Virus record (IMG/VR): IMGVR_UViG_3300008625_000012
Coordinates: 1-63,273 of that record
DNA from: a virus
Lineage: Duplodnaviria > Caudoviricetes
Reading direction: 5' to 3' (one strand)
Length of the DNA stretch: 63,273 bases
How positions within the stretch are numbered: the first letter of the stretch is position 1; each line of letters opens with the position of its first letter. Under the pieces are notes generated by a model, which did not search any database, had not been told where the DNA came from, and saw only the letters and a list, made by a program, of their open reading frames with translations. Positions 4,486 to 7,456 of the stretch are shown piece by piece. A program made the position numbers and the translations under genes.

Positions 4486-4791
4486 ATGACCCCACGTCAG
4501 AAAGATTGTTTGGATTTTATCAGTAGCCACTGGCTCGAAAAGGGCTACGCACCGTCCTACGACGAGATCAAAGAGGCATTGGGTGCCAAAAGCAAGTCCT
4601 CTGTGGCTGCTTTGGTATCCAAGCTGGAGGAGCGGGGGTATATTCAACGGATGCCCAACCTTGCCCGGTCTATCCGTTTAGTGGCGGCACCACTCCCCCC
4701 AGAGTTGCCGTCGCCGGAAGAGGCCCCCGCTCCTCCAGTAAAAGAAGTCACCGCTTCTGAGGAAATCGAAGAAGCAGCCCCTTGGGACTAA
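4486..4791 (+). CDS. LexA-like winged-helix DNA-binding domain protein lacking the autoprotease domain
   Basis: MTPRQ..LDFI......GYAPSYDEIKEALGAKSKSSV..LV..LEERGYIQR.PN.ARSI matches the alphaproteobacterial LexA N-terminus; followed only by a Pro/Glu-rich tail. Confidence 0.85.
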   Translation: MTPRQKDCLDFISSHWLEKGYAPSYDEIKEALGAKSKSSVAALVSKLEERGYIQRMPNLARSIRLVAAPLPPELPSPEEAPAPPVKEVTASEEIEEAAPWD

Positions 4792-4974: not shown

Positions 4975-4992
4975 CCACTTTCCCGCCAACTT

Positions 4993-5023
4993 GCCCCGGA
5001 ACCCTGTTCCGGGGTATTTTTTT
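4993..5023 (+). terminator. Rho-independent terminator
   Basis: GCCCCGGAA ccctg TTCCGGGGT stem followed by a T7 run. Confidence 0.7.
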
Positions 5024-5026
5024 AAA

Positions 5027-7456
5027 ATGATACCGACCAATATTGAAGAATACCTCGACAGGCTGCATGAGCTTCCACCGGAAGAGCAGCGGGACATCCT
5101 GTCGATATTGGACAGGCTGGATACAGCCACGTCCCGCAAGACCGCCAAGATCAGCTTCCTCGACTTCGTAAAGAAGGTGTGGCCCCAGTTCGTAGAGGGC
5201 TATCATCATAAGATTATGGCAGAAGCGTTTGAGCGCGTCGCCAGAGGGGAACTGAAGCGGCTCATTATCAATATGGCCCCGCGCCACACCAAATCAGAGT
5301 TCGCCTCCCACCTGTTCCCGGCGTGGTTTCTGGGGCAGTACCCAGATAAATATGTCATCCAAGCCTCCAACACCGCTGACCTCGCGGTGGACTTCGGGCG
5401 TAAGGTGCGTGACACCATAGGCGACCCGGCGTTTCAGGAGGTCTTTCCCGATGTTGCCATTCACCCGGACGCTGCGGCGGCGGGCAAATGGAAGACCACC
5501 GCCAAGGGGGAGTATTTCGCCATCGGCACGGGCGGCACCCTGACTGGCCGTGGCGGGGATTTAATCATCCTTGATGACCCTCATTCCGAACAAGAGGCGA
5601 AACAAGCTGAAACAAAGCCCGAAATCTACGACAGTGTTTTTGAATGGTATACGTCTGGACCCCGCCAGCGTGTGCAGCCGGGAGCGGCGATTGTCATTGT
5701 TATGTGTATGACCGGGGACACGAACGTCCTGATGGCGGATGGCGTAGAGAAACAGTTGCGCCACCTACGTGCTGGAGATGAGGTAGCTACATACGATAAA
5801 GGGGCATTAACTACCTCAAAAGTAAACAACTGGCGGTCAAGTGGTGTTGATTTTGTATATACAATACAAACACAATCTGGCAATATACTCCGGGCCAACG
5901 GGAGACATCCGTTTCTCGTAGAGAAAAATGGGGTATGTGAATGGAAGCGTCTAAAAGAGTTAAGACCGGGGATGGCGCTTGTCTCACTGAGGGATGTAAT
6001 AGGCCCCCAAGGGCAAAAACCAAGCCCGGTCTCTGTAGTGCATGTACGGCAAAAAAGAGTTACCACAAAAAAAATCCACAGGCACCCTACCGTCCGGTGG
6101 GACACCACGGTAAGTATAAGGGAAAAACTTGCAAGGTGGGCGGGTGCAATAAGCCCGCTTACTCGAATGAAATGTGTAAATCGCACAACAACAGTGTTGC
6201 TTGGGCTTCTGGTAAATATAAGGAAACTTCTGCCCAAAACAGGGCGCGACGGATTAAGCATAGGTACGGCATCACTGTTGATGACTATGATCGAATGGTT
6301 GAGGAGCAAGGCGGAAAATGCGCTGTGTGCGGAAACCCTCCTTCCTCTACCAACACTCGCGCACATTGGAATGGAAAACTATGTATTGACCATTGCCACG
6401 CCACTGGAAAGGTCAGGGGCCTCCTTTGCAACGACTGCAATCTTGCCGTTGGATACGCAAAGTCAGAAAAAACAGCACTGGCAATCGCAGAATACTTCAG
6501 GGTTCACGTTGGACAGAATAGTGGGGATACGGCCTGATGGTGAGGAAGAGGTGTTTGATGTAGAGGTAGACCGTACGGAGAATTTTATCGCTAACGGTGT
6601 GGTGAGCCACAATACCCGCTGGTCCAAGCGCGATCTCACTGGGCGCGTCCTCAAGGCCGCTGCGGAGAAGGACGGGGACGAATGGGAGGTGATTGAGCTT
6701 CCCGCTATATTGCCATCAGGGAAACCAATCTGGCCTGAGTATTGGCCGGAAAAAGAGATACTGGCAATAAAGGATGAGCTTCCCATCCCCAAATGGATGG
6801 CCCAGTATCAGCAGCGCCCCACCGCAGAAGAGGGGGCGTTAATAAAAAGGGAGTGGTGGCAGAGGTGGCCGCACAGGCAAACGCCTCATGTGGAATTTAT
6901 CATCCAATCGTGGGATACGGCGTTTCTCAAGACGGAGCGTTCGGATTACTCAGCCTGCACGACGTGGGGGGTGTTTCTCCACGAACACGAAGAAACCGGC
7001 AATATGATGCCCAATCTGATATTGCTGGACGCCTTCCGCAAACGCATGGAGTTTCCAGAACTCAAGAAGACGGCGTTTGAGATGTATAAGCAGTGGGAGC
7101 CGGAAGCCTTCGTGGTGGAGAAGCGTGCCAGTGGTGCCCCGCTAATATTTGAACTGCGCGAAATGGGCATCCCGGTAGGGGAATTTACGCCCTCAAGAGG
7201 CAACGACAAGATAGCCCGTGTAAATGCTGTTTCCGATTTGTTCGCATCTGGTGTAGTATGGGCACCTGAACACCGGTGGGCAGACGAAGTGATTGAGGAG
7301 TTTGCGGAATTTCCAGCCGGTGAGCATGATGACTATGTGGACAGTTCCACACAGGCCCTGCTACGTTACCGGCAGGGCGGGTTTGTTCAAACGCTTCAGG
7401 ATGAGGAGGAAGAGGATGTCCAGATACTCCCGCTCCCGAAGTATGAATATTATTAG
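5027..7456 (+). CDS. terL: terminase large subunit (intein-containing)
   Basis: LIINMAPRHTKS Walker A variant, LIILDDP Walker B, IVM|TRW coupling motif, SWDTA and HDDYVDS RNase H-like nuclease motifs. Confidence 0.95.
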   Translation: MIPTNIEEYLDRLHELPPEEQRDILSILDRLDTATSRKTAKISFLDFVKKVWPQFVEGYHHKIMAEAFERVARGELKRLIINMAPRHTKSEFASHLFPAWFLGQYPDKYVIQASNTADLAVDFGRKVRDTIGDPAFQEVFPDVAIHPDAAAAGKWKTTAKGEYFAIGTGGTLTGRGGDLIILDDPHSEQEAKQAETKPEIYDSVFEWYTSGPRQRVQPGAAIVIVMCMTGDTNVLMADGVEKQLRHLRAGDEVATYDKGALTTSKVNNWRSSGVDFVYTIQTQSGNILRANGRHPFLVEKNGVCEWKRLKELRPGMALVSLRDVIGPQGQKPSPVSVVHVRQKRVTTKKIHRHPTVRWDTTVSIREKLARWAGAISPLTRMKCVNRTTTVLLGLLVNIRKLLPKTGRDGLSIGTASLLMTMIEWLRSKAENALCAETLLPLPTLAHIGMENYVLTIATPLERSGASFATTAILPLDTQSQKKQHWQSQNTSGFTLDRIVGIRPDGEEEVFDVEVDRTENFIANGVVSHNTRWSKRDLTGRVLKAAAEKDGDEWEVIELPAILPSGKPIWPEYWPEKEILAIKDELPIPKWMAQYQQRPTAEEGALIKREWWQRWPHRQTPHVEFIIQSWDTAFLKTERSDYSACTTWGVFLHEHEETGNMMPNLILLDAFRKRMEFPELKKTAFEMYKQWEPEAFVVEKRASGAPLIFELREMGIPVGEFTPSRGNDKIARVNAVSDLFASGVVWAPEHRWADEVIEEFAEFPAGEHDDYVDSSTQALLRYRQGGFVQTLQDEEEEDVQILPLPKYEYY
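5705..6613 (+). mobile_element. intein (303 aa) in terminase
   Basis: block A CMTGDTNVLMADG, block B NGRHPF, block F/G VFDVEVDRTENFIANGVVSHN followed by +1 Thr; removal restores AIVIVM-TRW. Confidence 0.95.
5941..6537 (+). CDS. endonuclease VII-type HNH homing endonuclease nested in an alternative frame inside the intein
   Basis: YGIT..DYDRM..EQGGKCAVC...IDHCHATGKVRGLLCNDCN; N-terminal C-x4-C...C-x2-(C/H) repeats; GGGG SD-like site upstream. Confidence 0.9.
   Translation: MEASKRVKTGDGACLTEGCNRPPRAKTKPGLCSACTAKKSYHKKNPQAPYRPVGHHGKYKGKTCKVGGCNKPAYSNEMCKSHNNSVAWASGKYKETSAQNRARRIKHRYGITVDDYDRMVEEQGGKCAVCGNPPSSTNTRAHWNGKLCIDHCHATGKVRGLLCNDCNLAVGYAKSEKTALAIAEYFRVHVGQNSGDTA

Follow-up and report, generated by a model that had tools for sequence, protein, structure and literature searches.

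The DNA considered here, called the window below, is the whole of IMG/VR virus record IMGVR_UViG_3300008625_000012, a stretch of 63,273 bp from a virus of the Caudoviricetes (Duplodnaviria), with an estimated completeness of 100. Its gene for the large terminase subunit (TerL) is interrupted by an intein, and inside the intein, in a different reading frame, lies an intact gene for a protein of the Endonuclease VII type. The phage is no actinophage. Its portal protein is nearest, at ~40% identity, to those of Pelagibacter phage HTVC023P and of Synechococcus and Planktothrix phages.

A sequence-only reading of the window had described an intein that splits the IVM/TRW motif of the terminase (a slash marks a splice junction throughout), a 198-residue open reading frame (ORF) nested within it and shifted to frame +2 with respect to TerL, and a GGGG resembling a Shine-Dalgarno (SD) sequence in front of that ORF. 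All of these are present (Table 1). The list of ORFs, Pfam and PHROGs also bear that reading out in assigning an endonuclease to the off-frame ORF, with a start codon of its own.

The intein is joined to its host protein as IVIVM/CMTGDT...VVSHN/TRWSK. Pfam's Intein_splicing family matches it at E 2e-16 (60.6 bits, against a cut-off of 35.8) from residue 10 to residue 303, with a large internal gap, such that only the ends are matched. The ends are also where the family is conserved, the invariant columns of the intein-family alignment being confined to residues 1-93 and 272-303. Block B of inteins carries the motif TxxH. Here, His68 is invariant, and the residue three places before it is Asn65, no Thr.

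An endonuclease hidden in the intein frame, within the linker between the two splicing lobes, was considered and is ruled out. No Pfam family matches linker residues 99-264, even at E <= 10. The linker has a pLDDT (predicted local distance difference test) score of ~30. With the intein model as the query, Foldseek finds solely the splicing domains of mini-inteins (NpuDnaB, Ssp DnaB, Mtu RecA), at E values down to 1.8e-9 and template modelling (TM) scores, normalized to the target, of up to 0.9. The sequence-only reading had likewise recognized no endonuclease in this frame.

Table 1. Features of the terminase locus, in window coordinates. aa, amino acids; dN/dS, ratio of nonsynonymous to synonymous substitution rates.
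Feature	Position	Strand	Remarks
TerL precursor ORF	4991..7456	+	821 aa counted from a TTG; PHROG 38 terminase large subunit, E 4e-97; Pfam Terminase_6C, E 6.9e-9
Class-1 intein, 303 aa (TerL residues 239-541)	5705..6613	+	Cys1, His302-Asn303, Thr+1 (codon 6614-6616)
N-terminal splicing lobe, intein residues 1-98	5705..5998	+	AlphaFold pLDDT >90; dN/dS 0.16 (codons 1-75)
Shine-Dalgarno-like GGGG	5930-5933	+	7 nt 5' of endonuclease ATG; Gly76 codon and first base of Val77 codon
Homing endonuclease ORF (putative function), 198 aa, frame +2 relative to TerL	5941..6537	+	ATG start; Pfam Endonuclease_7
Two Cys-rich, zinc-finger-like modules, endonuclease residues 14-35 and 64-82	5980..6186	+	invariant Cys
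In-frame linker, intein residues 99-264 (166 aa)	5999..6496	+	open in TerL frame; pLDDT ~30; predicted disordered
Endonuclease VII / HNH catalytic core, endonuclease residues 103-186	6247..6498	+	stretch matched by Pfam; family-profile match to T4 enzyme
C-terminal splicing lobe, intein residues 265-303, ending in EEVFDVEVDRTENFIANGVVSHN	6497..6613	+	pLDDT >90; invariant alignment columns
TerL C-extein, beginning TRWSKRDLTG	6614..7456	+	intein-less alleles run QPGAAIVIVM/TRWSKRDLTG unbroken

The protein read in the +2 frame, in turn, is readily recognized. Pfam's Endonuclease_7 family (PF02945) matches its residues 103-186 with 72.5 bits (cut-off 23.6; E 2.7e-20), as do several endonuclease VII families of PHROGs (best E 7.9e-30), and a profile of the endonuclease family meets T4 endonuclease VII (1e7d) at E 2.5e-5 with the elements C..C, DH.H and C..CN aligned. 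In the T4 enzyme, these elements provide the zinc ligands and the His and Asn residues of the metal site. Their counterparts here (C127/C130, D150-H151-x-H153 and C163/C166-N167) are invariant in 39/39 sequences. An AlphaFold2 model of the endonuclease, made with 39 relatives aligned, has a mean pLDDT of 83.5, falling below 50 only at residues 1-10 and 196-198. The TGA that ends the ORF straddles the Pro277-Asp278 codons of the intein.

In front of the catalytic core are two Cys-rich modules, in which C14, C19, C32, C35, C64, C69 and C79 are invariant; residues 61-82 give a weak match to Pfam Zf_WRKY19. These modules presumably bind DNA. The endonucleases of the family come in two lengths. Those of ~190-200 residues, with two modules, occur in the aquatic-phage group to which the window belongs, and those of ~150 residues, with one, are found in actinophages and in most prophages. 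The short relatives align from residue 45-57 of the window endonuclease on, and have the second module only. The length of the in-frame linker tracks that of the endonuclease, and the linker is still stop-free.

An unusually long member, L119:2118-3140, has an intein of 341 residues and a nested ORF of ~236 residues.

Relatives were taken from IMG/VR as the best 80 of 600 stretches found with TerL as the query and the best 80 of 152 found with the endonuclease, to give 160 loci. Some contigs were matched by both queries; the unique intein DNAs number 68, or 69 with the window. An endonuclease homologue is present in 97 of the 160 loci, and both splicing lobes are complete in 93 of these 97. 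The endonuclease is offset by +2 in all 93, and Thr follows the intein in all 93. In 92, the N- and C-terminal lobes lie in one stop-free frame that starts with Cys and ends with His-Asn, and these 92 in-frame relatives all keep Cys1, His-Asn and Thr+1 together.

The signals for starting the endonuclease are conserved as well. Of the 69 unique sequences, 64 start it with ATG and 5 with GTG; in 21 more distant relatives the numbers are 15 and 6. In 90/90 sequences, the start codon overlaps an invariant Trp codon of the intein (as xxR-TGG), which in the window is the codon for Trp80 (5942-5944). Of the 69 sequences, 65 have GGAG or GGGG at -11 and 2 have it at -9; the remaining 2 lack it. At the Gly codon from which this motif derives, 66/69 have GGA or GGG and none has GGT or GGC, whereas among the other Gly codons of the splicing lobes, GGT and GGC make up 299 of 567. 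The window ATG is adjoined on its 5' side by a TGA of the endonuclease frame, and several relatives have just 0-6 open codons 5' of the start. As far as sequence can tell, this pattern favours internal initiation over frameshifting.

A regulatory hairpin that would mask these signals, with the codons for HPFL paired to the SD-like motif and the ATG, was also considered and rejected. RNAalifold, given 27 sequences, returns a weak helix (-5.0 kcal/mol) that shows a double change in only 1 of 10 pairs and both of whose arms are constrained by protein. The start region of the window folds no better than its shuffles (z +0.51).

Which of the two frames does selection see? The 69 unique sequences were aligned by the endonuclease protein, and the identical nucleotides were read in three frames. 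Nucleotide diversity in the overlap is 0.30, 0.23 and 0.52 at endonuclease codon positions 1, 2 and 3, a pattern typical of a coding frame; variability peaks at the site that is position 2 of the intein frame. Read as endonuclease, the sequences share a mean pairwise amino acid identity of 0.64; read as intein they share 0.39, and in the non-coding third frame, with its ~13 stops per family sequence (21 in the window), 0.36. Values of dN/dS were obtained by the Nei-Gojobori method from pairs at 70-95% identity, 180 of the 2346. The overlap gives 0.12 when read as endonuclease (usable dS in 124 pairs) versus 1.34 when read as intein, and the N-terminal splicing lobe outside the overlap gives 0.16. 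Purifying selection in the +2 frame is just what the sequence-only reading had predicted.

This preference reverses at the two ends of the overlap. Over endonuclease codons 1-19, which correspond to intein residues 80-98, variability follows the phase of the intein frame instead, and it does the same over the last 12 codons, where 4 alignment columns were kept. These are the places where the endonuclease ORF overlaps the folded splicing lobes. The sequence-only reading had called the overlap fully dual-coding. Both frames are indeed open, but only ~33 codons, at the two ends, encode a folded part of one protein within the ORF of the other.

The intein frame is not left to chance, however. It contains no stop in any of the 69 unique sequences, whereas resampling synonymous codons of the endonuclease ORF gives expected means of 2.1-3.0 intein-frame stops for the window ORF and ~2.6 across the family. 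For the window alone, the probability of finding none is 0.03-0.09. The endonuclease frame is itself open for at least 188 codons in 69/69, some ORFs ending a few codons before the end of the window's.

The means of avoidance can be seen codon by codon. Where endonuclease codons for Leu, Val or Ile end in TA, the next base is a pyrimidine in 209/209 cases, and where a codon ends in TG, the next base is A in 0/175. Met is followed by Ile, Met, Thr, Asn or Lys in 0/175 cases, where the background is 24%; any of these pairs would make a TGA in the intein frame unavoidable. Thus, the need to read through has left its mark on the endonuclease at two levels, in its choice of codons and in its protein sequence. 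The linker, for its part, is kept stop-free and is otherwise unconstrained.

The family has members among cultured phages too. A tblastn search of cultured phages with the intein returned 39 records, all of them Mycobacterium, Mycolicibacterium or Gordonia phages, with every match inside TerL; the identity is 31-38%, and at least 80% of the intein is covered in 36 of the 39. Gordonia phage Affeca and Mycobacterium phages Phlyer and Chandler have a 151-152-residue Endonuclease VII-like ORF nested off-frame, which in Phlyer shares 49% identity with that of the window (E 4e-49).

Loci in genomes and metagenome-assembled genomes (MAGs) were sought by scanning one genome per species. This gave 22 loci, 18 of them with the same nesting inside long TerL-like ORFs, in prophages or MAGs of several phyla. 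The nested loci carry the labels Microbacteriaceae, Mycolicibacterium, Geobacteraceae, Caulobacteraceae, Gallionellaceae, Bradyrhizobium, Oleiphilaceae, Oribacterium, Dysosmobacter, Clostridiaceae, Chloroflexota/Anaerolineae, Opitutaceae, Saccharimonadales and Vulcanimicrobiota, among others. The element is thus a member of a large family inherited with its off-frame architecture, not a fresh invasion of the window phage, and that family extends far beyond actinophages.

Within terminases, its distribution is sporadic. Among the best 80 of 600 TerL loci, 59 have an uninterrupted insertion site, most of them reading QPGAAIVIVM/TRWSKRDLTG. The 23 of these TerLs that are nearest to the window's (73-90% extein identity) all lack this intein, and the first bearer appears at 65%.

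One locus, L036:2049-2504, has a mini-intein of 152 residues at the same C-motif site, the only mini-intein found there. It might be taken for the ancestral form, a possibility that was rejected. Its DNA matches that of the full element in L014 over 1-324 and 774-879 (84-87%), with an internal deletion of ~450 nt, and its +2 frame still holds the first ~30 residues of the endonuclease fused to the C-terminal tail of the endonuclease. Because the DNA match to L014 falls into these two blocks and the +2 frame keeps these fused remnants, L036 is a deletion derivative of an L014-like full element.

On these grounds, we hold it highly probable that the window carries a mobile TerL intein whose homing endonuclease, an HNH enzyme of the Endonuclease VII type, is a separate overlapping gene in frame +2 and not an in-frame domain. 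Ribosomes translating TerL would read through the insert and deliver a precursor in which a disordered linker, 166 residues long and essentially arbitrary in sequence, connects two folded HINT lobes. Protein splicing would remove the whole insert and rejoin IVM to TRW in the ATPase coupling motif, giving an active terminase. Independent initiation at the internal SD-like motif and ATG, written into the codons for Gly76 and Trp80 of the intein, would supply the free 198-residue endonuclease. In a mixed infection, the endonuclease would be expected to cut an intein-less TerL gene near its IVM/TRW codons, and repair would copy the element in. Homing cleavage of this kind is suggested by the sporadic distribution and by the purifying selection on the endonuclease.

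Several observations weigh against this picture. The exception among the 93 complete loci, L123:2265-3162, has its lobes in different frames, with an insert of 898 nt, and at L181:2501-2935, one of the 18 nested genome or MAG loci, the intein frame is open and the endonuclease frame is open for 115 codons only. Together with L180:2141-2963, a frame-broken chromosomal copy on a 911-kb contig of an alphaproteobacterial MAG, these are apparent states of decay or error. The likeness in structure to T4 endonuclease VII is weak. Foldseek, queried with the endonuclease model, does place the T4 enzyme (1e7l) first and finds Hpy99I as well, at E values from 9e-3 to 4e-2 and with TM scores of ~0.3 over 78 columns. 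Glu65 is important in T4 endonuclease VII, and in the profile alignment its counterpart in the window ORF is Val170. Further, the SD-like motif and the start codon fall in codons that the intein constrains, so part of their conservation may stem from the intein; the synonymous third positions argue otherwise. Last, among the best 80 of 152 loci found with the endonuclease, the nearest (L084) is just 68% identical to the window's, which means either that the donor is unsampled or that the element is old in the window lineage. Recent transfer into the window phage fits no better than an element that has long been resident and was lost from relatives.

That distance of 68% would also suit a relic, a resident element whose intein still splices and whose endonuclease, inactive or left with no target, is decaying. 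Decay products do exist in the family, as L036, L181 and L180 attest. For the window we nevertheless find this explanation unlikely, since its ORF is intact and keeps all of the columns that are invariant in 39/39 relatives, including the Cys ligands and the DH.H and C..CN elements, since the dN/dS of 0.12 in the endonuclease frame is family-wide, and since targets abound in the form of intein-less alleles with the identical protein site (the 59 of the best 80 TerL loci above). The endonuclease might instead be produced by programmed -1/+2 frameshifting, or by transcriptional slippage, as a fusion to the N-extein and the N-terminal splicing lobe; the ORF lies, after all, inside an actively translated gene, and the overlap contains an A6 run (6051-6056) and an A8 run (6067-6074). 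Here, the TGA directly 5' of the window ATG means that any shift must come after the start, with loss of the N-terminus of the endonuclease, and the few open codons 5' of the start in several relatives tell the same way. A start codon at the same place in 90/90 sequences and a GGAG or GGGG at -11 in 65/69 are what internal initiation predicts, and the A-runs were not seen in an informal look at the alignments of relatives. We consider frameshifting very improbable.

The same A6 and A8 runs are possible hot spots for slippage or for error, and an endonuclease that really belongs to the intein frame might have been displaced by a frameshift in sequencing or assembly. Both frames, however, are intact in the window despite the runs, and the +2 offset recurs in 93/93 independent metagenomic loci, in 18 genome loci and in the finished genomes of cultured phages. 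Nor would codon-level avoidance of stops be expected if the intein frame were never read. An artefact of this type is effectively refuted.

Intein endonucleases of this kind are already published for actinophages, and the window adds a new member. Gosselin et al. (bioRxiv 10.1101/2025.01.02.630785) describe the off-frame architecture in TerL inteins of actinophages, where it was then called previously unreported. They define it as an Endonuclease VII-like ORF in the intein's endonuclease region, in frame 3 (+2) with respect to the intein, and propose that a free-standing endonuclease gene was integrated. The sequence-only reading was, then, well judged in holding the arrangement to be rare rather than unprecedented. 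The main text of that preprint does not contain "ribosom", "start codon" or "metagenom"; its supplements may list relevant members.

For the actinophages, Kelley et al. (2016; PMC5050341) place the TerL6-f inteins of B3/B4 mycobacteriophages in the ATPase C-motif and report that the TerL6-f intein of Chandler gp6 spliced in a MIG reporter. Chandler, whose intein splices, carries the same off-frame ORF; by analogy, the window intein probably splices as well. The window element resembles these TerL6-f inteins in its homologous intein (31-38% identity across 100% of its length), in its homologous endonuclease (49% to Phlyer), in its insertion before TRW in the ATPase C-motif, and in its +2 offset, with the start codon over the invariant Trp codon. 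It differs from them in residing in an uncultured phage, with a portal nearest those of Pelagibacter, Synechococcus and Planktothrix phages. Further, its endonuclease is longer by ~45 residues, which hold an extra Cys-rich module, and starts with ATG instead of GTG behind a clear GGAG-type motif.

Three other systems bear comparison. Phillips et al. (bioRxiv 10.64898/2026.09.14.751524) report a cyanobacterial dnaX intein with an out-of-frame LAGLIDADG endonuclease. As described there, it shares with the TerL family a contiguous intein, an endonuclease ORF overlapping at +2, and a sporadic distribution in which mini-intein alleles coexist, together with low dN/dS where the endonuclease is read and elevated dN/dS where the extein/intein is read. 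It differs in the enzyme (LAGLIDADG, not Endonuclease VII/HNH), in the host gene (dnaX, not TerL), and in residing in cellular rather than phage genomes.

The ShiLan insertion in phage DNA methylases (Arsenault et al., 2025; PMC11855218) likewise hides an HNH endonuclease gene, read out of frame, in a stop-free insertion of a phage gene. According to that report, however, ShiLan is without splicing domains and stays in the protein, whereas the window insert is a bona fide intein; nor was a ribosome-binding site found in ShiLan, initiation of a leaderless type being proposed, whereas an SD-like motif is conserved in the window family. In the fractured genes of Dassa et al. (2009; PMC2677866), a free-standing endonuclease gene lies between the halves of a split intein. 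These share with the window a separately translated endonuclease gene between splicing halves, but their host gene is in two ORFs and splices in trans, as described there. The window does not have a split intein, its TerL precursor being one continuous ORF of 821 residues, with an intein frame that is stop-free in 92/93 relatives, and splicing would be in cis.

The literature searched held no description of an off-frame intein endonuclease outside actinophages and cyanobacteria. What is new here is the breadth of the family, the quantified frame-specific selection and stop avoidance, the embedding of the start codon and SD-like motif in conserved intein codons, and the derived nature of the sole mini-intein.

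How did the arrangement arise? The sequence-only reading had a free-standing homing endonuclease gene invading a mini-intein. That event is not visible, and L036, the one mini-intein at hand, is no precursor. The sporadic distribution fits a homing cycle, as do L036, L180 and L181; the original capture of an endonuclease gene is not visible in them. No paralogous free-standing endonuclease was found as a donor in the 63-kb record, and free-standing relatives of the endonuclease in bacterial contigs (L184-L186, 36-41% identity) do not establish one. The offset and the placement of the start are, moreover, common to mycobacteriophage endonucleases at 49% identity. This means that any invasion would be ancient, predating the window phage.

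The off-frame layout may accordingly be seen in two ways, as a tolerated accident or as an ancient, co-adapted pair of overlapping genes. We lean, by a little, toward the second. The ribosome-binding site and the start codon are written into the conserved intein codons for Gly76 and Trp80, each protein's folded parts share their DNA solely with disordered parts of its partner, and the endonuclease sequence is shaped never to create a stop in the intein frame. Further, the package has spread among terminases, the phages concerned infecting bacteria of at least five phyla. If this view is right, a polypeptide of ~166 residues, with its sequence unconstrained, would be translated in every terminase precursor and then discarded. 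T4 endonuclease VII is a dimer. One may speculate that an enzyme of this type cannot work as an in-frame domain of an intein, which would explain why the frame was never restored.

Seen across the family, the out-of-frame intein endonuclease is a conserved design that crosses phyla, and no curiosity of actinophages. For students of overlapping genes, it provides a clean natural example where the protein under selection is read in one frame and all that selection demands of the other is that it stay open, with the hand-over between frames coinciding with the edges of folded domains. The nested endonuclease will usually escape gene callers, which then annotate the intein as endonuclease-less, and surveys of intein mobility are biased as a result. 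The family also holds many natural variants of a splicing domain that tolerate a long, arbitrary linker, and is a source of HNH enzymes predicted to be site-specific and aimed at a conserved terminase motif.

Other inserts were noticed in related terminases. L027:1528-4017 and L105:579-4034 have an unrelated intein of ~319 residues at the Walker B site (DDPH/...THN/SEQ), with Ala as its first residue and with LAGLIDADG-like motifs, as judged by eye. In L105, this intein and the intein with the off-frame endonuclease occur in one TerL of 1152 codons. In the P-loop region of L067:1459-3981, PPRH and TKSE are separated by an intein-like insert that ends in VVTHN/T. Counting the sites of these inserts together with the C-motif, the terminase family has at least three intein sites.

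Just 5' of the TerL gene in the window, a small ORF (4486-4791, + strand) is a candidate for the small terminase subunit or for a regulator. By eye, we take its N-terminus to resemble a LexA-type winged-helix DNA-binding domain.

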